Below, piece by piece: positions 2 to 24,344 of a DNA stretch of 64,000 bases; position 1 is the stretch's first letter, and each line of letters opens with the position of its first letter. This DNA is from Planctomycetota bacterium. GTDB taxonomy: Bacteria > Planctomycetota > PLA2 > JAEUHO01. The stretch lies in contig CBDCWP010000026.1 in assembly GCA_965223505.1 (NCBI GenBank), positions 108,782 to 172,781 on the forward strand. The letters run 5' to 3'. A model generated the notes under the pieces. That model was not told the origin of the DNA. It searched no databases and saw only the letters and a list, made by a program, of their open reading frames with translations. Both the position numbers and the translations under genes were made by a program.

Positions 2-925
2 CGCGCCATCCAGGGCGAGCAGGATCTCGACGCCGTGCCCGAACCGCCCGACGAGGCGGTCACGCAACGGGGCGATCTGATCCTGCTGGGTGAGCACCGC
101 CTCTTGTGTGGTGACGCCGGAAGTACCGAGGATCTGGACCGACTACTCGACGGAGCGCCGATCCACTTGGCGAATTGTGACCCTCCCTACAACGTCAAGG
201 TCGAGCCCAGGTCGAACAATGCCATCGCAGCCGGCCTGACGACGAAGAACGACACGCGCGCCAAGACGCACCATCAGCAACTCGACGTGGCGCGCCATCC
301 GGGCAAGGCCAAGGCGACGCACGATCGGCTGCGCGCGAAGGACCGTCCGTTAGAGAACGACTTCGTTTCCGACGAGGAGTTCGACCAACTCCTCCATGCG
401 TGGTTCGGCAACCTGTCGCGTGTGCTACTCCCCGGTCGTGCAGCATACATCTGGGCCGGCTACGCCAACGTCGTGAACTTTCCGCAGGCGCTCAAGGAGG
501 CGGGGCTCTACTTCTCACAGTGGATCATCTGGGACAAACAGTGGCCGGTGCTGACGCGCAAGGACTTCATGGGCGCCCACGAGGTCTGCTACTACACCTG
601 GAAGGAAGGCGCGGCACATCAGTTCTTCGGCCCGCCTAACGTGCCCGACGTATGGGCGGTGAAGAAGGTCAACCCGCAGTCCATGGTTCACCTCACGGAG
701 AAGCCCGTCGAGTTGGCGATCCGCGCGATTGAGTACAGCAGCGTTCCCGGTGAGAACGTGCTGGATCTGTTCGGCGGATCCGGTTCGACGCTGATTGCCT
801 GTGAGCAAACGCAGCGCAACGGCTACCTGATGGAGCTGGATGGTCTGTATTGCGACATCATCGTCGCTCGGTACGAGCATCTCACCGGGAAGAAGGCGGA
901 ACGCGTCCGTTCCGAACCGTCGTGA
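2..925 (+). CDS. Site-specific DNA methyltransferase (N6/N4 family, phage/integrative-element type), 5' end outside window
   Basis: DPPY motif (NCDPPYN), HLTEKPVELA and VLDLFGGSGSTLIAC motifs; frame is open from base 2. Confidence 0.9.
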   Translation, partial: RAIQGEQDLDAVPEPPDEAVTQRGDLILLGEHRLLCGDAGSTEDLDRLLDGAPIHLANCDPPYNVKVEPRSNNAIAAGLTTKNDTRAKTHHQQLDVARHPGKAKATHDRLRAKDRPLENDFVSDEEFDQLLHAWFGNLSRVLLPGRAAYIWAGYANVVNFPQALKEAGLYFSQWIIWDKQWPVLTRKDFMGAHEVCYYTWKEGAAHQFFGPPNVPDVWAVKKVNPQSMVHLTEKPVELAIRAIEYSSVPGENVLDLFGGSGSTLIACEQTQRNGYLMELDGLYCDIIVARYEHLTGKKAERVRSEPS

Positions 926-1093
926 CCGAGGACCCGGCCAGCGCCCTGGACCCCGCCGACCTCGAAGAACAGGCCAAGGCCACGATCGAGTCGTTGTCTC
1001 CCTCGACGAATAGGTGACCTGCGAAGGGCAGGAAACCGGTGTTGATAAGGCTCTCTCCTTTGGCTGGCCTATGTGCCAGGGAAAGGAAGAGAG

Positions 1094-2455
1094 ATGAACG
1101 ACGATACGAAGGCGCCCGAGAGGTTGGACGGCCCGCTTCCGAAGGGAGGCGGAGGCGACGAAGTCGCCGGAGCCGAGCGGAGGAAGCGGGCCGTGAGCGG
1201 CTACGTGCCCCGCGGCACACGCAGCCGTCGTGCTCGAACGGTGCGAAGCGACGCATCGCGTAGCGCGGAGTTCACGGGCGAGCAGCGCCTGTTGGCGCTT
1301 GACTGTTGGTTTCGCAGCGAGCTTGCGGCCACGGAGTTCGCGCCGCTGATCGGCGTGAGCACGGCGTCGCTGTACGCGTGGCGTCGCAAGTTCGAGGAGG
1401 AGGGCCCCGCCGGTTTGCTCGGGCACAAGCGCGGCATGAAGGGCAGCGGGCTGCCCGAGCCGGCGCGCCGTGCGATCCTGATGATGAAGGACGCGCATCC
1501 GGACTGGGGCCAGGATCGGATCCACGACATGCTGATCCGAACGGAGGGTATCTCGGTTTCAGGCGGCGCGGTTCAGCGCGTGCTGAAGGAAGCGGGCTAC
1601 GAGGTGGAGGCGGTTGCGCCGGCGCGCAACCCGCCCAAGGTGAAGCGATTCGAGCGCAAGCGACCGAACGAGCTTTGGCAAACGGATCTATTCACGTTTC
1701 TCCTGAAGCGCGAGCGTCGGCGCGTGCACCTGGTTTGCTACCTGGACGACTTCTCGCGTTTCATCGTGGGCTTCGGGCTTCACGCATCGGCGTCGGGTGC
1801 GATGGTTCGGGAGACGTTCGAGCAGGCGATCGCGAACTTCGGCGCGCCCGAGGAGATTTTGACCGACAACGGCGCGCAGTATCAGACCTGGCGCGGGAAG
1901 AGCTCGTTTCGCAAGCTTTGCGAGAAGCGCGGCATCAAGCAGATCGTGGCCAGGCCGAGGCGGCCGCAGACGCTTGGCAAGATCGAGCGTTTCTGGGGCA
2001 CGCTGTTTCGCGAGCTGATCGACGGAGCGATCTTCCGCGGCATGGAGGACGCCAAGACGCGCATTGCCCACTTCATCGGCTTCTACAACTTCCAGCGCAC
2101 CCACCAGGGCATTGGCGGCCTGGTTCCAGCGGACCGATTCTTCGAAGCCTCGCAGAGCGTGCGCAGCGCCCTGCAGGAGGCGGTTGCAACGAACGCCAAG
2201 GAGTTGGCGCTTCACGGTGAGCCGCGCAAGCCCTTGTACCTGGCGGGTCGAATCGGCGACGAGCCGGTGTCGCTTCACGCCGAGGGCGACAAGGTGCTGT
2301 TGACGGACAAGGACGGCGTTCGCGAAGAGGTCGACTTGCGGGCATCGGGCAAGCGCAAGGATGCGGCCAAGGAGGGGCCGGGCGAGAGCGTGCTCGACGA
2401 CGTGCTCGAGGAGCTCAAGGCCCTTGACGAGGCGCCCACGAAGGAGCAGGAGTAA
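1094..2455 (+). CDS. DDE transposase A (HTH + rve integrase core, IS481-like)
   Basis: WQTD, TDNGAQY, GKIERFW triad; YNFQRTHQGIG; ATG at 1094 after AGGAAGAG. Confidence 0.9.
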   Translation: MNDDTKAPERLDGPLPKGGGGDEVAGAERRKRAVSGYVPRGTRSRRARTVRSDASRSAEFTGEQRLLALDCWFRSELAATEFAPLIGVSTASLYAWRRKFEEEGPAGLLGHKRGMKGSGLPEPARRAILMMKDAHPDWGQDRIHDMLIRTEGISVSGGAVQRVLKEAGYEVEAVAPARNPPKVKRFERKRPNELWQTDLFTFLLKRERRRVHLVCYLDDFSRFIVGFGLHASASGAMVRETFEQAIANFGAPEEILTDNGAQYQTWRGKSSFRKLCEKRGIKQIVARPRRPQTLGKIERFWGTLFRELIDGAIFRGMEDAKTRIAHFIGFYNFQRTHQGIGGLVPADRFFEASQSVRSALQEAVATNAKELALHGEPRKPLYLAGRIGDEPVSLHAEGDKVLLTDKDGVREEVDLRASGKRKDAAKEGPGESVLDDVLEELKALDEAPTKEQE

Positions 2456-2961
2456 TGCCTACGAAGAAGAAGAACGTGACGACGATCACGGCGAGCAAGA
2501 CGTCGCGCAAGCACGTGGCAGTGATATTGGAAGCGCTCTCAGGCGAGATCGGCACGAGCGAGGCGGCTGAGCAGATGGGCGTGTCGCTCTCGCGCTACTA
2601 CCAGCTCGAAGGCCGTGCTTTGAAGGGCATGCTGCGGGCGATGGAGCCGAAGAAGCGCGGCATCCAGAAGACGCCGCAGCGCGAGATATTGGCGCTGAAG
2701 GCCGAGAAACAGCACCTGGAGAAGGAGCTTCGGCGGCACCAGTCCCTGCTTCGTGCGGCCAATCGAAGCCTGGGGCTGGCGCGCGGCGGGCGCAAGCAGG
2801 CATCCTCGAAGAAGGGCCGCAGCGCCAAGCGCGGCCACCGCGGCAAGACGGTGCTGAAGACGCTGCGCACGGGCCTTGAAGAGAAAGGAAACGGCGATGG
2901 GACGGCGAAGCGAGATGCCGACGCTGGTGGCGCGCACGTCGGCGAGCGAGACGGCGCGTGA
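2455..2961 (+). CDS. Small HTH/coiled-coil accessory protein of the transposon (ORF2)
   Basis: EAAEQMGVSLSRYYQLE HTH-like segment; TAATG coupling to ORF1; identical in copy 2. Confidence 0.75.
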   Translation: MPTKKKNVTTITASKTSRKHVAVILEALSGEIGTSEAAEQMGVSLSRYYQLEGRALKGMLRAMEPKKRGIQKTPQREILALKAEKQHLEKELRRHQSLLRAANRSLGLARGGRKQASSKKGRSAKRGHRGKTVLKTLRTGLEEKGNGDGTAKRDADAGGAHVGERDGA

Positions 2962-3292
2962 GCGCGTGAAGGTGATTCTGCTCACGCTTGGCCGGCAGTG
3001 GAGCGTTGGCGATGCGTGCGAGCGTTTGGGCATCGGCCGAACGCGCTTCCAGGATCTTCGACGTAGGTTCTTGCAGGCCGGCGTTGAGGCGCTTGAAGGC
3101 GGCGCTTGTGGCCGGCCGCGCGCCGTGCTGCCTGACGACGATCATGAGCTTGAGCGCGAGGTGTCGAAGCTACGGCACCGAGTGCGCGTGGTGCGCACGC
3201 AGGTGGACATCTTCGATTGCGGGCTTGGCGAGGCGCCGCGGGTTCGGCACGCGCTGCATGTGGCGCACCAGGAAGGTTGGAGGCAGCGATGA
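2897..3292 (+). CDS. Small HTH accessory protein of the transposon (ORF3)
   Basis: SVGDACERLGIGRTRFQDLRRR HTH followed by GRP; AAAGGAA RBS; stop overlaps ORF4 ATG (ATGA). Confidence 0.75.
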   Translation: MGRRSEMPTLVARTSASETARERVKVILLTLGRQWSVGDACERLGIGRTRFQDLRRRFLQAGVEALEGGACGRPRAVLPDDDHELEREVSKLRHRVRVVRTQVDIFDCGLGEAPRVRHALHVAHQEGWRQR

Positions 3293-4395
3293 GCGAGAAG
3301 ATGTCGTACGAGGAGCAGGTGAAGTTCCGGCTTCAGGCCGTGGAGGTGATGCGGCGAAGTGGCTGGGACAAGGAAACACGCGCCTACCTGGCGCGAGTCC
3401 TTGGCGTGGCCGAGCGAACGATCAGGCGTTGGGAGCTTCGCGTTCGCCAGGGCAAGCCGGTGTACGAGAAGCGTGGCCGCAAGGCCGATGACGTACCACG
3501 AGCGAAGCGGCAGAAGGTGCTGCATGCGATGTTCAAGCTGGGGCCGTTCTCGGGTGTGGCCGTACTTCGGGGCATGTTCAGCGACGTACCGTATCGCGTG
3601 CTTTCAGAGATGAAGAGGCGCCTGCTACGGGTGGCGCTGCGTCGATGGCGCTGGTATCGCAAGCGGCTAGAGTGGGTTCGTTCCGGGGCGGTGTGGGCGG
3701 CGGACTTCACCAGGCCCAAGGCTGGCCTCTGGCAGGGCAAGGATCGACTGTTCCTGGTTCGCGATCTCGGAAGCGGAGCGCAGCTGGCGGCCGTAGCCTG
3801 CCGGGGCGAGAAGACGAAGACTGTGTGCGCGGCGCTGCTCGCTTTGATCACGCTGTTCGGAGCGCCGCTGATTCTGAAGAAGGACAACGCGGGCGCGTTT
3901 CGCTCGGAACAGACGGCCGCGTTGCTCGAGGAGCACGGCATCACGCCACTCACGTCGCCGCCGTACACGCCCGCCTACAACGGCGCGTGCGAGCGCAGCG
4001 GCGGGAACTTCAAGCGACGTGTACAGCACATCGCGCAGATGGAAGGACATCCCCGCATCTGGCTACCTCAAAACCTCGACGACGCCTTGCTCGTTGCGAA
4101 TACGACGGCGAGGCCATGGGGTGCGACTGGGCCGACGCCGGCGGAGGCTCTTGAAGACCGCCGGCCGATCACGAGGCAAGAGAGAACGGCATTTGAGCAC
4201 GATCTGAAGTTCGAGACCGATGCCGCGCTCAAGACATTCAAGGAAAGAAACGCTAGAATGCCGACGTGCATCGAGCGCGCGTCAATCGACCGCAGCGCGA
4301 CGCAGAGAACGCTCTGCAAGCACGGCTATCTACAGTTCCGGAGAGGGCGCTTATCAACACTAGTTTCCGCTTGGCGGACGCGGCCTAACGCGTAG
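3289..4395 (+). CDS. DDE transposase B (HTH + rve integrase core)
   Basis: WAAD, KKDNAGAF, YNGACER triad; N-terminal LARVLGVAERTIRRW HTH; GGAGG RBS; stop lies within the right IR. Confidence 0.85.
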   Translation: MSEKMSYEEQVKFRLQAVEVMRRSGWDKETRAYLARVLGVAERTIRRWELRVRQGKPVYEKRGRKADDVPRAKRQKVLHAMFKLGPFSGVAVLRGMFSDVPYRVLSEMKRRLLRVALRRWRWYRKRLEWVRSGAVWAADFTRPKAGLWQGKDRLFLVRDLGSGAQLAAVACRGEKTKTVCAALLALITLFGAPLILKKDNAGAFRSEQTAALLEEHGITPLTSPPYTPAYNGACERSGGNFKRRVQHIAQMEGHPRIWLPQNLDDALLVANTTARPWGATGPTPAEALEDRRPITRQERTAFEHDLKFETDAALKTFKERNARMPTCIERASIDRSATQRTLCKHGYLQFRRGRLSTLVSAWRTRPNA

Positions 4396-4403
4396 GGGAC
4401 ACA

Positions 4404-5607
4404 GTACACGGACGTCGGTGGGACTACGCAGGTCTCAGATTCAAACGGGAATCTGACGGACAACGGAACGTATCTGTTCGAATACGACTACAGGAACCAG
4501 ATCGTTCGCGTGAAACTGAAGTCAGATAGCTCGACTGTGGCGGAGTACCTCTACGACGCGCTGGGGCGGCGGGTCGAGAAGGAGGTAGGCGGCGACGTCT
4601 GGCGGTTCATCTACTCGGACCTAGAGACAGTCGCCGTCTACGATGGGAGCAATAGCTGGCTGCAAGACTTCGTGTTCGGTCAACGAATCGATGAGGTCTT
4701 GATGCTCGAGCAGGCGGACGTGCTCGACTTCGATGGGGATTCGAATACGACCGAGACGACGCGATCCTTCTACCATCTAAATGCCCTGGGGTCGGTGACT
4801 GAGATCACCGAGATGGACGAGGACGTTGCCGCCAGCTACCGCTACGACCCCTACGGCGCCGTGACGATTATTCGGAACAGCACCGAAGAGTCCGAGGACC
4901 CACTTGGGCAACCCTGGATGTTCACAGGCAGGTTTGCCGATGAAGAGACGGGGATGTACTACTACCGCTCAAGGGCGTACGATCCGGAAGTTGGGAGATT
5001 CACTCAGCGAGACGGACTCAGCTACGCATCGGGTCCCAATCTATACGAGTACGTCGGGAGCCATCCTCCTTCCGGAAGAGATCCTCTCGGGCTTGAGGAA
5101 GAAGACACCGACGAGAAGAGCGCCGAAGACAAGCCGGACCAAGGTCCGGACACAGAGAAACTCATGAAGCCCAGGTGGCGGCCACCCGGCCGCGCAGGCT
5201 GGACCGCCGCATTTACGAAGGCACACCTCGAGTGGTGGGAGGTTATTATCCGCGAGTACGAGCTGCACGGGCATCCGGCGGAGCGCCGCCGTCCCGCTCC
5301 CGCGAAGCCCGAGAAAACCGCGTTCGACAAGGACGGCACGTCCCCACCGCCCTGGATGGTGATCCCCCATGTACCTGCAGGTGGGGGGGGGACGACCGTC
5401 TGCCCTGGGTCTGGGCCGAAGTCTCTGCGTGATTGGCTGGGTGATAAGGATCTGCCTCCGTGGCTGGTCGCGCCCCATCTTCTTGACGAACCGCTCGACG
5501 GCGAGAGTAACGCTGACGGCTCGGACGACGCGGGAAGTGACGGCGCGGGCAAGGGTGAGACAGAAGGCGACAAGAAGACCGGCGAGAGCGGGAAGCCCGC
5601 CAAGTAG
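4404..5607 (+). pseudogene. Rhs/YD-repeat protein, 3' part only (Rhs core + divergent C-terminal extension), 5'-truncated by the transposon
   Basis: Frame open from the IS end (YTDVGG...DSNGNL...YDYRNQ), YDALGRR, FTGRFADEETGMYYYRSRAYDPEVGRF, NLYEYV...DPLGL. Confidence 0.85.
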
Positions 5608-5720
5608 CGCCCCCCCGGGGGAGCTTGGCGGCCGCCCAATCACTTGAACCTGAAGCAGCGATTCGCGGTTCCGGTACGATAGCGATGTGGTGCCGTACGC
5701 ACTCTCGGAGTTTCGCCCCG

Positions 5721-7229
5721 ATGGCCCTTCGTATGACTCTAGCGGTCACTCTTCTATTGGCAGCGCCTTCAATTTGGGCTGACGAGTCGCCAGAGATGGG
5801 ACGCATGACGGAGGCAACAAGTGTTGTCGAGCGCAACCTTAGGATGCTGGTCCAGGGCCAAGAAGTTGGCGGTACGCGCGTCCGTGTCGGAAGGACGAAA
5901 GATGGGAACCGGCTGGCCGAGACCGAATCGCTTATCCGCATGACACTCGGGGACGGCGATCGCGACGACAGAGTGATCGAGTCGCGAGCATACTCGCTTG
6001 AGTGCTTCGACAGCGACGGCAGGATGCGTTGGATACGCACCCGAGCGACCGAAGGCGAAGCCGCGACGACGATGAGTGTCCGGTTCAGCGTCACCCACGC
6101 ACGAATCAAGTGGGACTCGCCCGACGGCGATGGAGAGGAGCGCATCGAACTGCCCGCAGACTTTAGTTCGGACTACCAGGTCTTTCAGTCACTCGTGAGA
6201 GACTTCCGTCGGAACGAATCAAGTGCGGCGTCGTACTCGAGATGGGTGGGGGGAGACATCCCGTTCGAAGCAGCTCAAATGACCGTCATTGAGAAGACGT
6301 CAGTCACGCATCGGGGCAAGAAGCACGACGGCTTTCTCATTCAGATGGAAGGGGGCCGAATCGTCGTGGACGCGGATTTCGTTCCCATGCGCGCTACTAG
6401 GTTCGGGATATACGAAATTAAGTGGATCGACGCCCCCCCCTTCGATTTCTCGCCTAGTGGCTGGAACGTAAGCAGTTCCATCCCGGTCGAAGGGCTGGCT
6501 CCGACCTCAAAGCACCTCGAATCGCTAGAGATGATCGCGACCCTCGTTGAAGATGATCCGGCGCCAGTGTTCTCGAGCAATCGATATCAGGACGTGAAAA
6601 GGGATGGAAAGACCTACTCTCTCACCCTAGGTTCGACGCGGCCCAAGTTAGCCGCCCGCCTTGAGTTTCCTCTTGAAGTCACAGATGAAAGGGCCAAGCA
6701 CTATCTCTCGCCGACTCTCCTGAGCCAGTCCGACCACCCGCTGATCGTCGAACGGGCGAAGAAGATCGTAGACGGGTCGGGCGACGCGATTGAAGCCGCA
6801 ACGCGCATCGTGCAATGGGTCTACACAAACCTTGAGAAGTCGAGCGGTACGATCAGTTCTGCGTCCTCCATTCAAGCCCTCAGGGCGAGAATCGGCGACT
6901 GCACCGAGCACGCGGCGCTTGTTGTGGCGCTTTGTCGTGCCGTTGGAATCCCCGCTCGCAACGTTCGTGGGATCATGTACTTCGTGGCACGCGGCGCGCC
7001 CAGAGCTGGATATCACGCGTGGGCGGAGATATGGCTGGGAGTGTGGACTGGTGTTGATGCGACTATTCCTGAGGTAGGGACTGCGGCCCGCTACATCCTA
7101 CTCTACGTCGATGAGCCAGGGGAAAGCGTGAGTCTCGCTGAGCGCTCTCGAGCATTGCTCGGAAAAGTCCGCCTGCGCGTCACCGCATATAGGCCCCAAG
7201 GCGGAAAGCGAACGGTCGTAGAGCGCTGA
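5721..7229 (+). CDS. Secreted transglutaminase-like domain protein
   Basis: Signal peptide; GDCTEHA...GIPAR...YHAWAE...VDAT gives a Cys-His-Asp triad. Confidence 0.85.
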   Translation: MALRMTLAVTLLLAAPSIWADESPEMGRMTEATSVVERNLRMLVQGQEVGGTRVRVGRTKDGNRLAETESLIRMTLGDGDRDDRVIESRAYSLECFDSDGRMRWIRTRATEGEAATTMSVRFSVTHARIKWDSPDGDGEERIELPADFSSDYQVFQSLVRDFRRNESSAASYSRWVGGDIPFEAAQMTVIEKTSVTHRGKKHDGFLIQMEGGRIVVDADFVPMRATRFGIYEIKWIDAPPFDFSPSGWNVSSSIPVEGLAPTSKHLESLEMIATLVEDDPAPVFSSNRYQDVKRDGKTYSLTLGSTRPKLAARLEFPLEVTDERAKHYLSPTLLSQSDHPLIVERAKKIVDGSGDAIEAATRIVQWVYTNLEKSSGTISSASSIQALRARIGDCTEHAALVVALCRAVGIPARNVRGIMYFVARGAPRAGYHAWAEIWLGVWTGVDATIPEVGTAARYILLYVDEPGESVSLAERSRALLGKVRLRVTAYRPQGGKRTVVER

Positions 7230-8340: not shown

Positions 8341-8562
8341 GTGAATCCTCCGTGCCACTTCCGCCAGAACACGGCGAAGGGCAGCCGCGCTCATCCCCGG
8401 TCTCGACGGCCCGCCACAGGATACCGTAGGTTGTCGCTCCCACGCCGACGGCGATCGTGCAGAGTCGTGCACGGACGTGCGCACAGTCATGCCGATTTGT
8501 GGCAAAGACACCCGAGGCTGAATCTGCAACTTACGCCGTTGCAAACAGTTACGACTTGGGCT

Positions 8563-8614
8563 CGCCGGCCTGTCAAGCCGGAGGTCGCGGGTTCGAGTCC
8601 CGTCACTCCCGCCA
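8563..8614 (+). pseudogene. tRNA-Asp(GUC) 3' fragment (att core), copy A
   Basis: Anticodon arm CCGGC-CTGTCAA-GCCGG, T arm GCGGG-TTCGAGT-CCCGT, CACTCCC-G-CCA; no D arm or 5' acceptor strand upstream. Confidence 0.9.
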
Positions 8615-8721
8615 TTCTTGTTGCGCCCAGTTGCACTATCTCGCGCCCCGGTGCGCACTTCGGGCGATCTCGCGCCACGGCCGCCGATTCCTTACATCTC
8701 GCAACGATGTGCGAGGAAGTG

Positions 8722-8793: not shown

Positions 8794-9728
8794 TCACACC
8801 TTCCAGAGGAGCTGACTTCCCTCTCGGCGCACGCGGCCTCGCTGTACCAGCACATCCAGCCCCAGGCTCATGCGGGCCTTCAGTTGCTTGCCCATTCGGT
8901 TGAACCCTAGGACACGGCCGGCCTCGCGAGACAAGTCGTCCGCGTCCATGCTGACTTGGTCGCGCAGCACCGCTGCAGCGGCGTTGGCAACCTCTTCGGG
9001 GGGGATTTCGTTCGCGTTGCGGCGGTCCCGATCTTCACGGCCCTGGACTCTCACGACGTCGTACGTGCGGGGGTCCTGGTGCGAGGCCCATAGGAACGTC
9101 GACGGTCCGGCCTTCGTCTCGATCAATGCGAGAGGTCGCAGTGCCTGCGCCATGCGACCAAGGACACGGTCTGTTGCTTTCTGGAGCCCGAATGCCTCCA
9201 CAACCCGGCGGCAGAGCAAGCGGTACTCGATCGGTGCCTCTTGGTCGAGCACGCGCTGGGCGAGTTCCTGTATTGCTGCGGTTCGGGAGCTTGAATAGAA
9301 GGCATCCGGTCCGCCACGGGCCTTGAGCACCGGGGTTGCTCGGTACGTCCGGCCCGCCGGCGCGAACACCTGTTTCGCTGGCGCGGGTGAAGGTGAAGCT
9401 ACGGCCGCCATGTGTGCACTGGACGCGAAGAGGCCGGAGCTAGTCGCCATGACGTCATCAGCTCCGCCGCCTTCGGCATTGGTTGAGGTGGGACGTCCGA
9501 GTTCCTCAAAACGTTGAACGACACGCTCAATCTCGCGATCCGGATCCAGCCACCAGTCCGTCGACCAGATGCGGTGCAATGACCAACCGAGACTTTCCAA
9601 CACGGCTTGTCGTAGGCGGTCTCGGTCACGAGCCGTCTTGCCGCTGTGGTACATGGCTCCGTCGCACTCAATCCCCAATCGGAACCGGCCCGGCACGTCG
9701 GGGTCCTTGATGCCAAGATCGACACGGT
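8794..9728 (-). pseudogene. C-terminal fragment (REase/Vsr-like + DUF3320-like wHTH) of a DUF4011-type SF1 helicase
   Basis: RVDLGIKDPDVPGRFRLGIECDGAMYHS...RDRDRLRQAVLESLGW.LHRIWSTDWW; reading frame cut at the junction with the partial transposon at 9729. Confidence 0.8.
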
Positions 9729-10517
9729 GAGGCGCCTGCTACGGGTGGCGCTGCGTCGATGGCGCTGGTATCGGAGGCGGCTAAAGTGGGTTCGTGCCGG
9801 GGCGGTGTGGGCGGCGGACTTCACCAGGCCCAAGGCTGGCCTGTGGCAGGGCAAGGATCGACTGTTCCTGGTTCGCGATCTCGGAAGCGGAGCGCAGCTG
9901 GCGGCCGTAGCCTGCCGGGGCGAGAAGACGAAGACTGTGTGCTCGGTGCTGCTCGCTTTGATCACGCTGTTCGGAGCGCCGCTCGTTCTGAAGAAGGACA
10001 ACGCCGGCGCGTTTCGCTCGGAGCAAACGAAGGCGTTGCTCGAGGAGCACGGCATCACGCCACTCACGTCGCCGCCGTACACGCCCGCCTACAACGGCGC
10101 GTGCGAACGAAGCGGCGGCAACTTCAAGCGACGTGTGGAGCACATCGCGCAGATGGAAGAACATCCCCGCATCTGGCTCCCTCAAAACCTCGACGACGCC
10201 TTGCTCGTTGCGAATACGACGGCGAGGCCATGGGGTGCGACCGGGCCCACGCCGGCGGAGGCCCTCGAAGACCGCCGGCCCATCACGAGGCAAGAGAGAA
10301 CAGCATTCGAGCACGATCTGAAGTTCGAGACCGATGCCGCGCTCAAGACATTCAAGGAAAGAAACGCTAGAATGCCGATGTGCATCGAGCGCGCGTCAAT
10401 CGACCGCAGCGCGACGCAGAGAACGCTCTGCAAGCACGGCTATCTACAGTTCCGGAGAGGGCGCTTATCAACACTAGTTTCCGCTTGGCGGACGCGGCCT
10501 AACGCGTAGGGGACACA
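9729..10517 (+). mobile_element. Partial copy 3 of the four-ORF transposon (3' part of transposase B + right end)
   Basis: Matches 3615-4403 (offset 6114); ends GGGGACACA; left part deleted. Confidence 0.9.
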
Positions 10518-13092: not shown

Positions 13093-13338
13093 ACCTCTTT
13101 CATTTTACTCCAGTGGAGCAACTTCGCCACTGTATCGAGCGTGTCGACCCCATCGCGCGCGGGCAAGGTGGCCCGGTCGGTCGAGACGGACCTCGCGCGC
13201 CAACGATCGTCGGAGCCATCGCCGCTCGCTCAACGCGAGGTCGTGCAACGACGCGCGCACAGTCATGCAGATTTGTGGCAAAGACGCTCGCGGCCGGTCT
13301 TGCAACTGACGCCGTTGCAAGCAGTTACGACTTGGCCT

Positions 13339-13390
13339 CGCCGGCCTGTCAAGCCGGAGGTCGCGGGTTCGAGTCCCGTCACTCCCGCCA
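13339..13390 (+). pseudogene. tRNA-Asp(GUC) 3' fragment (att core), copy B
   Basis: Identical to copy A over 54 bp (8561-8614 = 13337-13390); 5' half absent. Confidence 0.9.
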
Positions 13391-13498
13391 GTCTTCTTGC
13401 ACGACGTCGCCCCAACTTGCGCGACGTTGCACGCTTGCGGCGATCTCCCTAGCGGAGCGCCCGATCCCTTACTTCTCGCAGCAATGTGCAAGGACGTG

Positions 13499-16042: not shown

Positions 16043-16905
16043 GTGAGCACAGCTAGAGCACATCTTCAGCAGGCTACAGTCGTGTTCGCACTCGTGGCCG
16101 CTTGCGGCCTGCGAACACCCACGACAGTTCATGGGGAACCAACTCCGGCGGACTCCACACTTGATGTTCACATAGTCGGCGCGACAGATGCCGGCGACAA
16201 GTGGATGCGAGTTGTGGTTCGCGAGTTGATTCCGTCCTCAACGAGACGACATCACTCGATTGGACAACTGCTTTGGGTTGCTAGAGTCAAGTCTAAGGGT
16301 GGTAGAGCGCGGACTTCTCTTCCTCATAGCGCAGTTCGCGAGTTTCTGGCGGTCTCTGCGTCAACTTCGCAGTCCTGCGAGTACTGGAACGCCGCGGGCC
16401 CGCTGCAAGTGGACAAACCGAATGTGGTAAGGATCCCTGTAGAACTGACGCTGGCACGAACCGCCACTGGTAAAGTCCGTCACTCCAATGAGTGCCGCTG
16501 CGAGAAGTCAGTCGTCTGGTTTCGCAGAGCCAAAGCTCCCTGGGCACCACGCGGTTCAGCGGCCTCCGCGATGCGCCTTTTCCCACTTGATTTGGGCGGT
16601 GAGCCCAAAGCAGTAGTCTCCAGGCTGTGGGTATCCCGGTCTGTGCAGGTGCAGCCGTCTGGCCGATATGTACTTAGAGGGATCGAAGCCGGCGCTGACT
16701 ACGATCTTGACGTGGTCTCCTCTACCTGTGGAGAGTCTCAGACCGTTACCTGGAAGGCCGAAGATGGAGAAAGGGCGCCCGAGCTTGTGGTTCAAGAGCC
16801 GGGCGACCTTGTCGTACGCATCGATTGGCGCGTCGAGCAATCGAAGTCCCGCTATTCGCTCGATTTGGGACCCGCTCCCTTCAGACGCCGACGGTTCAGC
16901 GCGAC
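16043..16905 (+). pseudogene. Secreted protein with carboxypeptidase-regulatory-like beta domain, 3'-truncated by transposon copy 2
   Basis: Signal-like N-terminus; SGRYVLRGIEAGADYDLDV motif; frame runs into the IS end at 16906. Confidence 0.5.
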
Positions 16906-16913
16906 TGTGTCCC

Positions 16914-18020
16914 CTACGCGTTAGGCCGCCTCCGCCAAGCGGAAACTAGTGTTGATAAACGCCCTCTCCGGAACTGTAGATAGCCGTGCTTGCAGAGCGT
17001 TCTCTGCGTCGCGCTGCGGTCGATTGACGCGCGCTCGATGCACGTCGGCATTCTAGCGTTTCTTTCCTTGAATGTCTTGAGCGCGGCATCGGTCTCGATC
17101 TTCAGATCGTGCGCGAATGCCGTTCTCTCTTGCCTCGTGATGGGCCGGCGGTCTTCGAGGGCCTCCGCCGGCGTGGGCCCGGTCGCACCCCATGGCCTCG
17201 CCGTCGTATTCGCAACGAGCAAGGCGTCGTCGAGGTTTTGAGGTAGCCAGATGCGGGGATGTCCTTCCATCTGCGCGATGTGCTGTACACGTCGCTTGAA
17301 GTTCCCGCCGCTGCGCTCGCACGCGCCGTTGTAGGCGGGCGTGTACGGCGGCGACGTGAGTGGCGTGATGCCGTGCTCCTCGAGCAACGCGGCCGTCTGT
17401 TCCGAGCGAAATGCGCCGGCGTTGTCCTTCTTCAGAATGAGCGGCGCTCCGAACAGCGTGATCAATGCGAGCAGCGCCGCGCACACAGTCTTCGTCTTCT
17501 CGCCCCGGCAGGCTACGGCCGCCAGCTGCGCTCCGCTTCCGAGATCGCGAACCAGGAACAGTCGATCCTTGCCCTGCCACAGGCCAGCCTTGGGCCTGGT
17601 GAAGTCCGCCGCCCACACCGCCCCGGCACGAACCCACTTTAGCCGCCTCCGATACCAGCGCCATCGACGCAGCGCCACCCGTAGCAGGCGCCTCTTCATC
17701 TCTGAGAGCACTCGATACGGCACGTCGCTGAACATTCCCCGAAGTACGGTCACACCCGAGAACGGCCCGAGCTCGAACATCGCACGCAGCACCTTCTGCC
17801 GCTTCGCTCGTGGTACGTCATCGGCCTTGCGGCCACGCTTCTCGTACACCGGCTTGCCCTGGCGAACGCGAAGCTCCCACCGCCTGATCGTTCGCTCGGC
17901 CACGCCAAGGACTCGCGCCAGGTAGGCGCGTGTTTCCTTGTCCCAGCCACTTCGCCGCATCACCTCCACGGCCTGAAGCCGGAACTTCACCTGCTCCTCG
18001 TACGACATCCTCTCGCTCAT
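16914..18020 (-). CDS. DDE transposase B (copy 2)
   Basis: Near-identical to 3289-4395 with several substitutions. Confidence 0.85.
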   Translation of the reverse strand: MSERMSYEEQVKFRLQAVEVMRRSGWDKETRAYLARVLGVAERTIRRWELRVRQGKPVYEKRGRKADDVPRAKRQKVLRAMFELGPFSGVTVLRGMFSDVPYRVLSEMKRRLLRVALRRWRWYRRRLKWVRAGAVWAADFTRPKAGLWQGKDRLFLVRDLGSGAQLAAVACRGEKTKTVCAALLALITLFGAPLILKKDNAGAFRSEQTAALLEEHGITPLTSPPYTPAYNGACERSGGNFKRRVQHIAQMEGHPRIWLPQNLDDALLVANTTARPWGATGPTPAEALEDRRPITRQERTAFAHDLKIETDAALKTFKERNARMPTCIERASIDRSATQRTLCKHGYLQFRRGRLSTLVSAWRRRPNA

Positions 18021-18412
18021 CCCTGCCTCCATCCTCCCTGGTGCGCCACATGCAGCGCGTGCCGAACCCGCGGCGCCTCGCCAAGCCCGCAATCGAAGAT
18101 GTCCACCTGCGTTCGCACCACGCGCACTCGGTGCCGTAGCTTCGACACCTCGCGCTCAAGCTCATGATCGTCGTCAGGCAGCACGGCGCGCGGCCGGCCA
18201 CAAGCGCCGCCTTCAAGCGCCTCAACGCCGGCCTGCAAGAACCTACGTCGAAGATCCTGGAAGCGCGTTCGGCCGATGCCCAAACGCTCGCACGCATCGC
18301 CAACGCTCCACTGCCGGCCAAGCGTGAGCAGAATCACCTTCACGCGCTCACGCGCCGTCTCGCTCGCCGACGTGCGCGCCACCAGCGTCGGCATCTCGCT
18401 TCGCCGTCCCAT
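18017..18412 (-). CDS. HTH accessory ORF3 (copy 2)
   Basis: Near-identical to 2897-3292. Confidence 0.75.
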   Translation of the reverse strand: MGRRSEMPTLVARTSASETARERVKVILLTLGRQWSVGDACERLGIGRTRFQDLRRRFLQAGVEALEGGACGRPRAVLPDDDHELEREVSKLRHRVRVVRTQVDIFDCGLGEAPRVRHALHVAHQGGWRQG

Positions 18413-18854
18413 CGCCGTTTCCTTTCTCTTCAAGGCCCGTGCGCAGCGTCTTCAGCACCGTCTTGCCGCGGTGGCCGCGCTTGGCGCTGCGGCCCTTCTT
18501 CGAGGATGCCTGCTTGCGCCCGCCGCGCGCCAGCCCCAGGCTTCGATTGGCCGCACGAAGCAGGGACTGGTGCCGCCGAAGCTCCTTCTCCAGGTGCTGT
18601 TTCTCGGCCTTCAGCGCCAATATCTCGCGCTGCGGCGTCTTCTGGATGCCGCGCTTCTTCGGCTCCATCGCCCGCAGCATGCCCTTCAAAGCACGGCCTT
18701 CGAGCTGGTAGTAGCGCGAGAGCGACACGCCCATCTGCTCAGCCGCCTCGCTCGTGCCGATCTCGCCTGAGAGCGCTTCCAATATCACTGCCACGTGCTT
18801 GCGCGACGTCTTGCTCGCCGTGATCGTCGTCACGTTCTTCTTCTTCGTAGGCAT
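18348..18854 (-). CDS. HTH/coiled-coil accessory ORF2 (copy 2)
   Basis: Identical protein to 2455-2961. Confidence 0.75.
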   Translation of the reverse strand: MPTKKKNVTTITASKTSRKHVAVILEALSGEIGTSEAAEQMGVSLSRYYQLEGRALKGMLRAMEPKKRGIQKTPQREILALKAEKQHLEKELRRHQSLLRAANRSLGLARGGRKQASSKKGRSAKRGHRGKTVLKTLRTGLEEKGNGDGTAKRDADAGGAHVGERDGA

Positions 18855-20215
18855 TACTCCTGCTCCTTCGTGGGCGCCTCGTCAAGGGCCTTGAGCTCCT
18901 CGAGCACGTCGTCGAGCACGCTCTCGCCCGGCCCCTCCTTGGCCGCATCCTTGCGCTTGCCCGATGCCCGCAAGTCGACCTCTTCGCGAACGCCGTCCTT
19001 GTCCGTCAACAGCACCTTGTCGCCCTCGGCGTGAAGCGACACCGGCTCGTCGCCGATTCGACCCGCCAGGTACAAGGGCTTGCGCGGCTCACCGTGAAGC
19101 GCCAACTCCTTGGCGTTCGTTGCAACCGCCTCCTGCAGGGCGCTGCGCACGCTCTGCGAGGCTTCGAAGAATCGGTCCGCTGGAACCAGGCCGCCAATGC
19201 CCTGGTGGGTGCGCTGGAAGTTGTAGAAGCCGATGAAGTGGGCAATGCGCGTCTTGGCGTCCTCCATGCCGCGGAAGATCGCTCCGTCGATCAGCTCGCG
19301 AAACAGCGTGCCCCAGAAACGCTCGATCTTGCCAAGCGTCTGCGGCCGCCTCGGCCTGGCCACGATCTGCTTGATGCCGCGCTTCTCGCAAAGCTTGCGA
19401 AACGAGCTCTTCCCGCGCCAGGTCTGATACTGCGCGCCGTTGTCGGTCAAAATCTCCTCGGGCGCGCCGAAGTTCGCGATCGCCTGCTCGAACGTCTCCC
19501 GAACCATCGCACCCGACGCCGATGCGTGAAGCCCGAAGCCCACGATGAAACGCGAGAAGTCGTCCAGGTAGCAAACCAGGTGCACGCGCCGACGCTCGCG
19601 CTTCAGGAGAAACGTGAATAGATCCGTTTGCCAAAGCTCGTTCGGTCGCTTGCGCTCGAATCGCTTCACCTTGGGCGGGTTGCGCGCCGGCGCAACCGCC
19701 TCCACCTCGTAGCCCGCTTCCTTCAGCACGCGCTGAACCGCGCCGCCTGAAACCGAGATACCCTCCGTTCGGATCAGCATGTCGTGGATCCGATCCTGGC
19801 CCCAGTCCGGATGCGCGTCCTTCATCATCAGGATCGCACGGCGCGCCGGCTCGGGCAGCCCGCTGCCCTTCATGCCGCGCTTGTGCCCGAGCAAACCGGC
19901 GGGGCCCTCCTCCTCGAACTTGCGACGCCACGCGTACAGCGACGCCGTGCTCACGCCGATCAGCGGCGCGAACTCCGTGGCCGCAAGCTCGCTGCGAAAC
20001 CAACAGTCAAGCGCCAACAGGCGCTGCTCGCCCGTGAACTCCGCGCTACGCGATGCGTCGCTTCGCACCGTTCGCGCACGACGGCTGCGTGTGCCGCGGG
20101 GCACGTAGCCGCTCACGGCCCGCTTCCTCCGCTCGGCTCCGGCGACTTCGTCGCCTCCGCCTCCCTTCGGAAGCGGGCCGTCCAACCTCTCGGGCGCCTT
20201 CGTATCGTCGTTCAT
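18854..20215 (-). CDS. DDE transposase A (copy 2)
   Basis: Identical protein to 1094-2455. Confidence 0.9.
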   Translation of the reverse strand: MNDDTKAPERLDGPLPKGGGGDEVAGAERRKRAVSGYVPRGTRSRRARTVRSDASRSAEFTGEQRLLALDCWFRSELAATEFAPLIGVSTASLYAWRRKFEEEGPAGLLGHKRGMKGSGLPEPARRAILMMKDAHPDWGQDRIHDMLIRTEGISVSGGAVQRVLKEAGYEVEAVAPARNPPKVKRFERKRPNELWQTDLFTFLLKRERRRVHLVCYLDDFSRFIVGFGLHASASGAMVRETFEQAIANFGAPEEILTDNGAQYQTWRGKSSFRKLCEKRGIKQIVARPRRPQTLGKIERFWGTLFRELIDGAIFRGMEDAKTRIAHFIGFYNFQRTHQGIGGLVPADRFFEASQSVRSALQEAVATNAKELALHGEPRKPLYLAGRIGDEPVSLHAEGDKVLLTDKDGVREEVDLRASGKRKDAAKEGPGESVLDDVLEELKALDEAPTKEQE

Positions 20216-20295
20216 CTCTCTTCCTTTCCCTGGCACATAGGCCAGCCAAAGGAGAGAGCCTTATCAACACCGGTTTCCTGCCCTTCGCAGGTCAC

Positions 20296-21120
20296 CTATT
20301 CGTCGAGGGAGACAAGCCATGCACGCCAGAGTCGCACATCAGTTCCGAAGTCCTGGCCCGTTGCCGCCTTGAGTGCCTTGGAACATAGGTCGCGCCTGCG
20401 CGTCGTTGTCTGTCGCGCGAGAGCATCAACGAGAGCGCTTGCCGCCTTTGGATATGGATGCGTCCGGAACCAGTCGAGTACGAACTCTTCATCATCCGCT
20501 TCCAGGCCGGCATCGAGTGCACGCACGAGTCGAGGTGCTGCGGCCGCCGCATCCACTGCAGCGAGGGCTTGGAGAGCGGCGAAGCGTACCTCCGAATCCC
20601 CGGCGCCCGTGAGGTTCGCTAGGCGAGCGGAGAGTTGTCGCGCAGACGCTCCCAGCAACTCGACGGCACCAAGCACAGTCCGGCGAACGTAGGAGGGCTG
20701 GGATTCGTCTTCAGCGACTTCGAGCACCTCTGAGGAGTGGGCCCGAGCGGCGTCACGTATCCCGTCTCGGGCGGCTGAAACCACGTCACCGGGTTGAGTC
20801 TCGTCGAGAGCCGCGAGCAATACGGAACGACTCTGCTCGAACGAGAGCGTGCCCAAATGGCGGAGCGCCTTCAGCTTCGCTTGGTCGTGCCCTGACGCGC
20901 GGGCGCGATCGAGAAGTGCCTTCGTGGCCTGGCGGTCACCGGTGGCCGCCCTTAGAGCCAGCATGGCGGCGCTGGCTTCCGCGGCATTGAGCTCCGGTTC
21001 TGATTGGACGATGGCGGAGGCGAATTGCTGCACGTCGCTCCTGCGCCGAGATGAGCCTCTATGTGAGGCGCCTGCCAGCCTCTCTTGCGCGCGTGTTGCT
21101 CGGTCGGCTTGAGGATCCAA
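20296..21120 (-). pseudogene. HEAT-repeat protein fragment; stop codon supplied by the transposon end
   Basis: DSEVRFAALQALAAVD HEAT repeats, C-terminal ALKAATGQDFGTDVRLWRAW; last codons lie inside the IS; 5' end unclear. Confidence 0.6.
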
Positions 21121-21743: not shown

Positions 21744-24344
21744 CTAGACGCTGCTTGAGGCCTGCGTCGGGCCCTCTGAAGCGGTTGCGATCGGCTCTCT
21801 TGCCTTCTTCACCTTGCAGACAAGCAAAGTCAGGTCGTCGTCCGTCTCCTGCCCTGCGGCAAAGGAGTGGGCGGAGTCGTAGAGGGCTTCCACGATGCCC
21901 GACGCCGTCTTCCCACGCTGGTCGCGAACCGTCCCCAGCACGCGCTCGGACTCGTAGAGCTCCCCATCGGGTGCATGCACCTCCGTGATCCCGTCCGTCA
22001 CGAGCGCGATGACATCGCCCTCGTGAAGTCCAAGCGGCTCACCCTCACCATACGTGGCGCCTTGAAGCAAGCCCAGGGCCGGTCCCGTCGGGGCGAGCTC
22101 TGCACGAACCGCGCCCATTGCCCCCATGACCAGGCCCGCCGGGTGACCGGCATTGGCGTACGCCAGGTGCAGCGTCCGATGGTCGAAGCGCACCAAGAGA
22201 AGCGACACGAAGCGATCGTCCGGAATGTCCTCGCACAGGAGCTCGTTCAGGAGCGCAAGCGCCTCGTGGATGGAGTTGCCGGCGGTCAGCAAGGAGCGCA
22301 GGTGGGCGCGCACCTCCATCATGATCAGTGCGGGCCCGACGCCATGGCCGCTGACGTCACCAATGACGAGCGCCACCGTGTCGTCAGGCAACGGAATCAC
22401 GTCGAAGTAGTCGCCGCATGTGACGCCTGCCGGATACACCACGCCCGCGACGTCAAGGCCCGCGACGCGAGGTGTGTCCGTGGGATAAAGCCGCTGCTGG
22501 ATGATCCCCGCCACGCGCATTTCAGCCTCTCGCTCGTGCAGCAAAATCCTCTCCGTCATGTCCTTGGTAACCGAGACGAAGTGGGTCACCTGCCCCTGTG
22601 TGTCCCGGATCGGCGTGACCGACTGCTCGCCATGCCAGAGGGCGCCGTCCTTCCTGCGATTGACCGTCGTGCCCCGGTAGACGTCCCCCCGCAGGATCGT
22701 GTCCCACATCAGCCGGAAGTGTTCGGCGTCATGGGTACCGGAGTTCAAGATGCGGGGCGTCTTGCCCAGGGCCTGCTTTCGCGTGAAGCCCGTCGTCCCC
22801 TCGAACCCGCGGTTGACGTAGTGGATCTTCCCAACGCGATCGGTGACGAAGATCGCATCGGCAGACTGATCCACCGCCGCCGTGAGCCGCCTGATGCTGT
22901 CGTCTTTGGCCTTCGCTGCCGTGATGTCGTGGAACACCACGACGCCACCGAGCGCCTCGCCCCGGTCCGACCGCAAGGGGGCGCCGCTGACAAGCAGCCA
23001 CACGCCATCCGTCGCCGAGGCGCGGCGAACGAAGAACTCCTCGTCCTCGAAGTGCTCTCCCGCGACCGCACGGGCCAGGGGCAGGGTGCCCGGCGCCTCG
23101 GGGGATGCCGGATCGCCCACGAGGCTGCCGACGCCGACCGCGGCCCAGCCCCGGCGCGCGACGGTGTCCTCGAGCCCACCGACGATCCGCGTCGCCGCCT
23201 CATTCACGAGCTGGATTTCGCCGCTCTTGTCCGCGACGACAACGCCTTGGTCCAGGCTCCGCAGGAGCGAACGCGTCAGGTGCAGGCTGCGTTTCTCTTG
23301 CGCGAGCCGCTCCCTCGCCTCCCGGAAGCCCAGGCCCGTCGCCGCCAGCGTGAGCAACAACCACACCAGCAGACCGAGCAGGATCGAGCCACGGCTCCTG
23401 CTCCTCGCCATGAATGCGGGCCCTGGCGCAGCGCCGAACCGCAGTGCGCGACCGGCGACCTCCAGTCGTGCCGTCGCTCGGAAGTCTCCGGAGCGGGCCC
23501 CCTGCCGGTCGGCATCAGCGACCAGGGGCAGCCAGATGCGATCGTCGCGCGCGTCCCGCAGCTCGACGCGGTCGCCGCGAAGCGTGCCGTCCAGCACTCC
23601 GTGAGCCAGCCTCGCGAGGAGGTTGTCGACGCGCCATGACAACAGCACGACGCCCAGCGGGTTGTCGGACGCATCACTCGTGACGGTGCCGGCCGTACGG
23701 AAGATCGGCAGCATGACGAGCAGCGCATCCGAAGAGGTCGTCTCGTGGACGAGGCGCACGGGATCCGAGAGCTGCGGTCGACCGGTTGCAACCGCCCGCT
23801 GGAGCGCCGCGCTGCAGATGGCGTCCGACGCCAGGTCGAAGCCAAGCGACGGCTCTACGCCTTCTCGGGCCTCTATGTACGTGACAGGAAAGAGCTCCGG
23901 GGACGGGGGCGCGGCCGAGAGCTGCCCCTCGCGTCCGCGGTGCGTAATCGCGTAGTCCTTGAAACCCTCCGCCCGCATGCGAGCGACGTGCGCCTCCCGA
24001 CCCTGCGCGGTTACCCGCGGCGCCCACTCGACCGCTTGGATGTCGGGATGCCTGGCGAGCGCCAGCCGCGCGAAGTCCAAGAACTCACGACGGGTCACGA
24101 ACTCGGAGCTTCGGTAGAGTCCCGCGAGGTACTCGAGCATCTCGACAGAGGACCCGATCTCCGCTTCGACGGAGGCGACCTGCTTGGCGAGGTACTCGCG
24201 AAACCGCTCGTGTACTTCTTCCCGCTCGCCCGTGCGGGCCACGTGGTAGGCCCCGAAGCCGGCGATCGGAGCCGCAGTGAGAAGGAGCAGCAAGAACAGG
24301 CGGCTGCGGCGGGCGGTCGTCAACATGGGGCGGGCGGGGTTCAC
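21744..24344 (-). CDS. CHASE + PAS-PAS + SpoIIE/PP2C-type phosphatase
   Basis: AVEWAPRV...FPVTYIE...LGFDL (CHASE); two PAS domains; GDYFD, IGDVSGHG, TDGITE, DDLT PP2C motifs. Confidence 0.92.
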   Translation of the reverse strand: MNPARPMLTTARRSRLFLLLLLTAAPIAGFGAYHVARTGEREEVHERFREYLAKQVASVEAEIGSSVEMLEYLAGLYRSSEFVTRREFLDFARLALARHPDIQAVEWAPRVTAQGREAHVARMRAEGFKDYAITHRGREGQLSAAPPSPELFPVTYIEAREGVEPSLGFDLASDAICSAALQRAVATGRPQLSDPVRLVHETTSSDALLVMLPIFRTAGTVTSDASDNPLGVVLLSWRVDNLLARLAHGVLDGTLRGDRVELRDARDDRIWLPLVADADRQGARSGDFRATARLEVAGRALRFGAAPGPAFMARSRSRGSILLGLLVWLLLTLAATGLGFREARERLAQEKRSLHLTRSLLRSLDQGVVVADKSGEIQLVNEAATRIVGGLEDTVARRGWAAVGVGSLVGDPASPEAPGTLPLARAVAGEHFEDEEFFVRRASATDGVWLLVSGAPLRSDRGEALGGVVVFHDITAAKAKDDSIRRLTAAVDQSADAIFVTDRVGKIHYVNRGFEGTTGFTRKQALGKTPRILNSGTHDAEHFRLMWDTILRGDVYRGTTVNRRKDGALWHGEQSVTPIRDTQGQVTHFVSVTKDMTERILLHEREAEMRVAGIIQQRLYPTDTPRVAGLDVAGVVYPAGVTCGDYFDVIPLPDDTVALVIGDVSGHGVGPALIMMEVRAHLRSLLTAGNSIHEALALLNELLCEDIPDDRFVSLLLVRFDHRTLHLAYANAGHPAGLVMGAMGAVRAELAPTGPALGLLQGATYGEGEPLGLHEGDVIALVTDGITEVHAPDGELYESERVLGTVRDQRGKTASGIVEALYDSAHSFAAGQETDDDLTLLVCKVKKAREPIATASEGPTQASSSV

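Follow-up and report, generated by a model that had tools for sequence, protein, structure and literature searches.

A mostly planctomycete insertion sequence family that carries two different DDE transposase genes and two small helix-turn-helix genes

Can a single bacterial insertion sequence (IS) draw on two different DDE transposases, and if both are encoded side by side, do they belong to one element or to two? The question is raised by a repeat in a 64,000-nucleotide stretch of a planctomycete genome (Planctomycetota bacterium, lineage PLA2, JAEUHO01; assembly GCA_965223505.1, contig CBDCWP010000026.1, positions 108,782 to 172,781 of the forward strand), the whole of which we call the window. 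The repeat encodes two DDE proteins, TnpA and TnpB, and between them two small helix-turn-helix (HTH) proteins, ORF2 and ORF3. To our knowledge, the well-studied bacterial DDE elements each possess one catalytic transposase, in some cases with an ATPase as helper or, as Tn7 does, with a nuclease of restriction-like type. An earlier note on the window, made from its letters alone, had described the repeat as one transposon of four genes. Our comparisons agree: the four genes move together between a single pair of ends, and their layout is conserved far beyond the source genome. A heteromeric transposase that contains both DDE enzymes is our best reading of this arrangement, with a probability of about 0.5.

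The repeat, its copies and its genes

Self-comparison of the window paired positions 994-4405 with 16904-20315 as inverted copies (3,412 nt, 99% complementary). The earlier note had counted two full copies and a partial one, which holds for the window; the genome as a whole contains five full copies of the 3,409-bp unit at 99-100% identity (L001 to L005; one on contig C39, two on C26 and two on C44), together with two partial copies, a left fragment (element nucleotides 1-1277) on contig C10 and the right fragment (nucleotides 2621-3409) at window positions 9729-10517. All five full copies share exact boundaries in unrelated flanks on the three contigs, and two pairs of copies on different contigs are identical in sequence (L001 and L002; L003 and L004). 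Given these five copies at 99-100% identity with identical boundaries, including the two sequence-identical pairs, the unit is an active insertion sequence that moves as one 3.4-kb piece. All four open reading frames (ORFs) are open in every copy compared. One copy interrupts an IS256-like transposase gene that is also present in seven intact, identical copies. Other genomes likewise hold identical multi-copy elements, at 100% identity in G167 and 99.95% in G276.

Alignment of all copies with their flanks set the ends of the element at TGT (995) and ACA (4403), the same termini that had been proposed from the window alone. Public sequencing runs (four runs from two samples of one study) gave a concordant picture: their Logan contigs break at 995 and about 4402, and reads cover the element about 4-5 times as deeply as its flanks.

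The differences among the five copies are clustered rather than scattered. In L003 and L004 alike, 34 positions are changed, almost all within element nucleotides 2202-3385, and in L005 42 positions within nucleotides 1074-2735, with some positions common to both sets. This clustering suggests that variants of the element have exchanged sequence in mosaic fashion, by recombination or gene conversion. Inverted pairs, 12.5 and 24 kb apart, account for four of the five full copies.

The four genes are closely packed (Table 1). Because tnpA and ORF2 meet at TAATG (2453-2457), ORF2 and ORF3 overlap by 65 nt, and ORF3 and tnpB meet at ATGA (3289-3292), tnpA-ORF2-ORF3-tnpB is, as judged from its junctions, a translationally coupled operon. 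Domain searches and the TAATG and ATGA junctions confirm the earlier description of TnpA, two small HTH proteins and TnpB as overlapping or coupled genes. ORF3 itself was borne out as a gene, but the TTG at 2876 previously taken as its start is less likely than the ATG at 2897. The tnpB frame opens at 3217, and the ATG at 3289 gives a protein of a length typical for its homologues. None of the four proteins matched an ATPase domain in Pfam or NCBIfam, in line with the earlier statement that no AAA ATPase is encoded. A scan of window positions 900-4500 for promoters and terminators returned nothing meaningful.

Table 1 Coordinates of the element, its copies, genes and ends in the window (nt, nucleotides; aa, amino acids; IRL and IRR, left and right inverted repeats).
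Feature	Positions	Strand	Remarks
Full element, copy 1	995..4403	+	3,409 bp, TGT...ACA; ends set by comparing 5 full and 2 partial copies, plus breaks in run contigs
IRL terminal block	995..1019	+	TGTCTCCCTCGACGAATAGG...; family consensus TGTcccCCtccCCGAAAT
IRL inner (subterminal) block	1031..1058	+	GGAAACCGGTGTTGATAAGGCTCTCTCC; non-coding, upstream of tnpA
tnpA, IS481-like DDE transposase	1094..2455	+	frame opens at GTG 1073; likely start ATG 1094, preceded by GGAAAGGAAGAGAG; Pfam rve/rve_3/HTH_32
ORF2, small HTH protein	2455..2961	+	weak HTH_28 match; start overlaps tnpA stop (TAATG); conserved in relatives
ORF3, small HTH protein	2897..3292	+	ATG 2897 after AAAGGAAACGGCG; HTH_28 and HTH_23; 65-nt overlap with 3' end of ORF2
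tnpB, second, divergent rve/DDE protein	3289..4395	+	368 aa; rve 43 bits; ATG overlaps ORF3 stop (ATGA); stop 8 nt inside right end
IRR inner block	4340..4368	-	reverse complement GGAAACTAGTGTTGATAAGCGCCCTCTCC; inside C-terminal codons of tnpB (..GYLQFRRGRLSTLVS..)
IRR terminal block	4379..4403	-	reverse complement TGTGTCCCCTACGCGTTAGG...
Partial copy	9729..10517	+	element nt 2621-3409, 3' part of tnpB plus IRR; 96-97% identical
Full element, copy 2	16906..20314	-	inverted, 12.5 kb from copy 1; 34 positions differ from copy 1

The proteins of the operon are related in pairs. The two small proteins, ORF2 and ORF3, share 34% identity over 64 aa (E 9e-9) and are paralogues. The two enzymes, which have the same layout, are distant paralogues of one another at 26% identity over 240 aa. 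In six of 15 TnpB family members that are longer than usual, an ORF3-like N-terminus is fused in frame to TnpB. The fused polypeptides (P0221, P0225, P0231, P0247, P0304 and P0305; 529-598 aa) are analogous to OrfAB of IS3. By this Rosetta-stone argument, the fusions hint that ORF3 may be the DNA-binding partner of TnpB, much as OrfA is for OrfB in IS3.

TnpB sits in the -1 frame relative to ORF3, and a programmed ORF3/TnpB frameshift was considered. We rejected it: positions 3200-3292 contain no A-rich slippery heptamer, and the stop and start codons overlap as ATGA. Since the two genes overlap without a slippery site, translational coupling is expected instead of frameshifting.

Linkage and integrity of the two enzymes across genomes

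An alignment search with TnpB retrieved 80 genome loci and 80 metagenome loci. In 50 of the 57 loci with a near-full TnpB and at least 3 kb of upstream sequence, TnpA lies upstream on the same strand, and in 45 of these 50 two separate HTH genes stand between the enzymes. A survey that started from TnpA in 401 genomes of the phylum gave the converse result. TnpB was found downstream in all 12 assessable genomes with a TnpA of at least 54% identity (five further TnpA matches lie at contig ends), and no solo TnpA element was found among these 12. On these comparisons, the gene order tnpA-HTH-HTH-tnpB is old and nearly invariable.

The note had named two findings that would speak for separate elements, an internal inverted repeat and a tendency of A and B to occur alone elsewhere, and neither is the rule. 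An internal match to an element's own terminal or inner end block occurred in 1 of 44 distinct elements and was weak (up to 25% mismatches allowed). We therefore rejected a nested or composite pair of independent ISs, given the internal ends in 1 of 44 and the joint presence of TnpA and TnpB in 50 of 57 and 12 of 12 loci; one locus, L107, is an exception.

Divergence of the two enzymes runs in parallel. Across 40 elements, pairwise identities of TnpA and TnpB correlate (Mantel r = 0.78; 0 of 999 permutations reach this value), with a mean pairwise identity of 40% for TnpB versus 58% for TnpA, a pattern that fits long co-inheritance. In a more distant branch (L237-L248, from 12 genomes of the phylum, with TnpA 38-45% identical), a TnpB-like gene lies downstream in 9 of the 12 loci, with an ORF2-like match between it and TnpA in five of these nine. 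The branch suggests a three-gene variant of the same layout.

A different arrangement was seen at two loci of one metagenome-assembled genome (MAG), where the element is split (L088 5440-11270 and L107 5318-10962, on contigs of 72 and 80 kb). At both, unrelated DNA of 2.0-2.3 kb separates ORF3-TnpB-IRR from a downstream IRL-TnpA-ORF2. The halves of the two loci are 82-87% identical to each other and their spacers are unrelated. The split could represent a B-only derivative, or a composite with cargo between its halves.

Both enzymes appear intact throughout the family, as the note had claimed for the window. The motifs that it had marked (WQTD/TDNG/KIER in TnpA and WAAD/KDNA/ACER in TnpB) correspond to the D-D-E triads D205/D265/E305 and D139/D199/E235. 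The TnpA triad is invariant in a curated alignment of 39 sequences and in 62 of 62 distinct intact ORFs from the loci; the TnpB triad is invariant in a curated alignment of 43 sequences and in 86 of 86 such ORFs, and is kept though TnpB identity drops to about 27-35%. Between the copies in the source genome, tnpA shows 12 synonymous and no non-synonymous codon changes, and tnpB 27 synonymous and 16 non-synonymous changes, with no stop in any copy. These patterns of change indicate that both TnpA and TnpB are under purifying selection.

Predicted structures give a similar picture. In the AlphaFold model of TnpB (predicted local distance difference test, pLDDT, 86), a helical HTH region at the N-terminus leads into an intact integrase-type core, and the C-terminus is helical. 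The TnpA model (pLDDT 76) starts with a disordered N-terminus, followed by two HTH regions and the core, and closes with a long helix and then a small beta domain. In Foldseek comparisons both proteins group with retroviral integrases, TnsB and IstA, and TnpA aligns to TnsB and IstA over almost its whole length. In its model TnpB looks catalytically competent, though it is without the C-terminal beta domain of TnpA. We considered a purely structural role for TnpB, as an 'outer' subunit of an intasome-like tetramer, and regard it as unlikely given the invariant active site.

The family is large. Of 1.84 billion cluster representatives (50% identity), a TnpB profile matched 1,115 at E <= 1e-30 and 2,809 at E <= 1e-10. 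Most relatives belong to Planctomycetota by their record titles, with some on long contigs labelled Myxococcota or Alcaligenaceae, and TnpB had no match in the plasmid collection searched. Public annotations of the proteins read 'IS481 family transposase', 'transposase InsO family protein' or 'DDE-type integrase/transposase/recombinase'. The best explanation of these data is a large family, found mostly in planctomycetes, that arose from IS481/IS3-type elements.

Ends and insertion sites

The ends are bipartite across the family, with a terminal block (IRL TGTcccCCtccCCGAAAT, IRR TGTGCcCCccACGAAAT) and, 35-45 bp inward, a better-conserved block. In the window, the inner blocks are GGAAACCGGTGTTGATAAGGCTCTCTCC at 1031-1058 and its counterpart at 4340-4368, read as the reverse complement; the earlier note had correctly placed a better-conserved subterminal inverted repeat about 35 bp inside the ends. 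At the right end, the inner block coincides with conserved C-terminal codons of TnpB. Left and right ends also differ in a regular way. Of 42 distinct elements, 30 have an IRL terminal block that exceeds that of IRR by exactly 1 nt, and 8 gave no information. At the fourth position, 44 of 47 right ends carry G, but the left ends are divided, 26 of 47 with C and 20 with G. Such conserved asymmetry in the terminal sequences fits a differential use of the two ends.

We surveyed target-site duplications (TSDs) at 47 insertions with both flanks, some of which come from short-read MAG or metagenome contigs that may be chimeric, and some from rearranged copies. No consistent TSD emerged at these 47 insertions, in that abutting direct repeats of 1-9 nt were no commoner than in shuffled left/right pairs; at a length of 4 nt, repeats exceeded the shuffles (2 observed versus 0.2 expected). 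Repeats of 4-45 nt at >=85% identity were present at 2 of 45 insertions. When offsets of up to 5 nt were allowed, 11 of 47 insertions had a repeat versus 6.6 +/- 2.4 expected, a value reached by 34 of 500 shuffles and not significant. Single cases were suggestive (AGC around L001; ACGAC around L003 if two nucleotides, CT, are skipped; an offset of (2,1) three times). Among the recent identical copies of the source genome, G167 and G276, no clear TSD was found except the AGC at L001.

Flanks of the inverted pairs match crosswise in places: ACCT is shared by the left flank of L003 and the right flank of L005, and GTCG by the left flank of L002 and the right flank of L004 at an offset of 1. An inversion model for these flanks was rejected, as it explains only half of the pattern and the reciprocal flanks do not match. 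At the interrupted IS256-like gene, the gene continues only on the IRL side of the inserted copy, and the missing upstream half is absent from the assembly (7 upstream versus 8 downstream halves at 100% identity). Because the gene continues on one side only and its other half is absent, rearrangement or deletion beside copies does occur. The element may either make a short TSD (3-5 bp) that intramolecular events often erase, or make none. Contigs of the four runs contained neither an empty site (a contig that skips the element) nor an IRR-IRL joint. Immediately outside the element, A is scarce at the left end (4 of 47) and T at the right end (3 of 47); this mirror-symmetric bias might stem from a target or cleavage preference, or simply from high G+C.

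The surroundings of the element copies form a variable region (window 35-925, 4510-7229, 8794-9696 and 8464-8671 / 13240-13447), with an N6/N4 DNA methylase, an RHS/YD-like fragment without a Pfam hit and a transglutaminase-like protein. A truncated REase_MTES_1575/DUF3320 protein adjoins the partial element copy, and a 208-nt direct repeat (84% identity) lies at 8464-8671 / 13240-13447. The most abundant repeat that we saw is an IS256/Mutator-type IS at window 24944-26185 (Pfam Transposase_mut, E 5e-101). It has about 20 matches in the genome, of which 7-8 are identical and about 10 are 89-90% identical, on contigs C1, C4, C30, C31, C34, C39, C44 and others; one of the identical copies is the IS256-like gene that the element interrupts. 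A protein of 866 aa encoded at 21744-24344 on the reverse strand, with CHASE, PAS and SpoIIE (PP2C phosphatase) domains, is a sensor unrelated to the element.

Known elements and the roles of two enzymes

The element combines traits of two familiar groups. The earlier note held that it fits no standard IS family, a view that has to be revised: TnpA is of IS481 type, and ORF3 with TnpB is like a split IS3 transposase. TnpA scores 207.2 bits against the IS481 profile NF033577, under the curated cutoff of 224. IS481 is the best profile for 39 of 39 TnpA homologues (best E 3.3e-70), some of which NCBI names 'IS481 family transposase'. Judged by these scores, TnpA is borderline, just beside the IS481 family. 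Like IS481, the element has a transposase with HTH and rve DDE domains in a single frame, TGT...ACA termini with inverted repeats, and a transposase gene that reaches the right end. IS481 elements are described by Kojima and Bao (2023; PMC10045372) as encoding one DDE protein and making TSDs of 2-15 bp, mostly 6. The present element, in contrast, spans about 3.4 kb, has three more conserved genes (including the second DDE enzyme) and shows no consistent TSD.

The best profile for TnpB is IS3 (68.9 bits), followed by IS481 (65.1 bits), both far under their cutoffs; the cutoff of the IS3 profile NF033516, 160 bits, is reached neither by TnpB nor by TnpA (146.9). In the IS3 family, OrfA is an HTH protein, OrfB holds the DDE domain, and the fusion OrfAB arises through a -1 frameshift. 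From its layout, ORF3+TnpB looks like a split OrfA/OrfB pair of this type: the HTH gene directly precedes the rve gene, which is in the -1 frame, the two are a single ORF in some relatives, and the termini are TG...CA. Differences from IS3 are the ATGA coupling in place of a slippery heptamer, the second full-length transposase, the second HTH gene and the lack of a 3-5 bp TSD.

In Tn7 (TnsA, TnsB and TnsC), IS21 (IstA and IstB), Mu (MuA and MuB) and Tn552/Tn5053, a single DDE enzyme works with an AAA+ ATPase; Tn7 has in addition the restriction-enzyme-like TnsA, so that two different nucleases divide the chemistry. With these systems the element shares an operon of several conserved transposition proteins and, in TnpA, a fold like that of TnsB and IstA; it differs from them in having no ATPase domain and in that its second enzyme is itself an rve/DDE protein. 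The 'large IS with passenger genes' ISArsp14 and ISBli29 were considered as matches and rejected, being elements with a transposase, a resolvase and an ATP-binding protein (PMC6305408). No description of an IS with two DDE enzymes was found in the full-text literature searched, a search that did not extend to ISfinder or TnCentral, so that a catalogue entry is possible. We would suggest, tentatively and with less confidence than we place in the heteromer itself, that this is the first bacterial IS family with an obligate heteromer of two different RNase-H-fold (DDE) enzymes, each having a small HTH adaptor of its own, and that they would act on asymmetric bipartite ends and integrate with no staggered cut of the target, and hence with no TSD.

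Since we take both DDE proteins to be catalytic subunits needed in the same pathway, a heteromeric two-DDE transposase is the reading that we prefer. The earlier note had likewise inferred a heteromer, for example with one enzyme per end, a reading that goes beyond what the sequence comparisons support. Under a heteromeric model, TnpA and TnpB would both be required in one transposition pathway, and ORF2 and ORF3 would be paralogous end-binding or adaptor subunits in a role like that of OrfA in IS3, probably with one HTH protein per enzyme (TnpA with ORF2, ORF3 with TnpB). TnpA, which has the complete HTH, core and beta-domain build of IS481, IstA and TnsB, would most likely carry out classical 3'-end cleavage and strand transfer, and TnpB, without the beta domain, a second, distinct cleavage or joining step. 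If labour is divided in this way, we would look for the task of TnpB first on the other strand (excision, as with TnsA of Tn7), almost as readily at the other end, and with somewhat less expectation at a different stage (junction cleavage or integration).

Several observations weigh against a heteromer. IS481-type enzymes transpose as single proteins, and TnpA may suffice. IS2, a member of the IS3 family with one transposase, achieves a similar one-base difference between its ends, so asymmetry needs no two enzymes; in the present element it coexists with two. Linkage and co-divergence are expected of any two genes in one element and are thus no proof of interdependence. Some relatives from other phyla lie on short, possibly mis-binned MAG contigs, where the phylum assignment is weak. 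TnpA is absent from its upstream place in 7 of the 57 TnpB loci, namely the two split loci of one MAG and five solo TnpB loci. No convincing left end was found in searches of these five (L076, L081, L084, L092 and L169); L076 retains an ORF3-like match upstream of TnpB, and the other four, having no detectable left end, are likely remnants. At L107, an IRL-like sequence lies directly upstream of ORF3-TnpB-IRR, and this B half could be able to stand alone or be a deletion derivative that moved in trans.

Other explanations draw on parts of the same evidence. TnpA might be the transposase on its own, with TnpB, ORF2 and ORF3 as transposase-derived accessories that do no chemistry and serve as regulator or inhibitor, or in target choice or immunity. 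Transposase-derived regulators are known in other elements, TnpA has the full build of a single-protein transposase and the best IS481 score, and TnpB evolves faster, has more non-synonymous changes between copies and is without the C-terminal beta domain. If TnpB had given up catalysis, its active site should have been lost, yet 86 of 86 TnpB ORFs retain the D-D-E triad, even where identity is as low as about 27%, and the core is modelled confidently as an intact integrase fold; we consider an accessory role unlikely. Quite unlikely, in our view, is an old fusion of two autonomous ISs with the same ends, one of IS481 type (TnpA+ORF2) and one of IS3 type (ORF3+TnpB), either of which could move the element redundantly. 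Redundant genes should often vanish, yet both are kept with intact triads in 50 of 57 and 12 of 12 loci; internal ends appear in 1 of 44 elements, a solo B with both ends was seen once, and no solo A among the 12 genomes found through TnpA. Such a fusion would account for halves made up like complete transposition modules, the ORF3+TnpB half resembling OrfA/OrfB of IS3 and fused in 6 of 15 long forms, and for the halves that lie apart at two loci of one MAG, one B half with an IRL-like end of its own.

That the repeat is an immobile relic, duplicated segmentally with genes that only look intact, we hold to be highly improbable. It would agree with the lack of clean TSDs and of an empty site or circle junction in the contigs of the four runs. 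It is at odds with five exact-boundary copies in unrelated flanks on three contigs, two identical pairs among them, with four open ORFs; with the copy that interrupts an IS256-like gene of which seven intact identical copies exist; and with the identical multi-copy elements of G167 and G276.

For annotation, the family means that units of 3.4-4.3 kb, which break planctomycete assemblies, are now labelled as two unrelated 'transposase' genes. The layout, in which a single pair of ends encloses genes for two DDE enzymes and two small DNA-binding proteins, is widespread in uncultured bacteria, and a large natural family keeps both enzymes, different and intact, in one operon. If both are needed, these elements would be a natural system for how transposition chemistry is divided between paralogous subunits, by strand, end or step, and they may show how ends become asymmetric and how integration might avoid target duplication.

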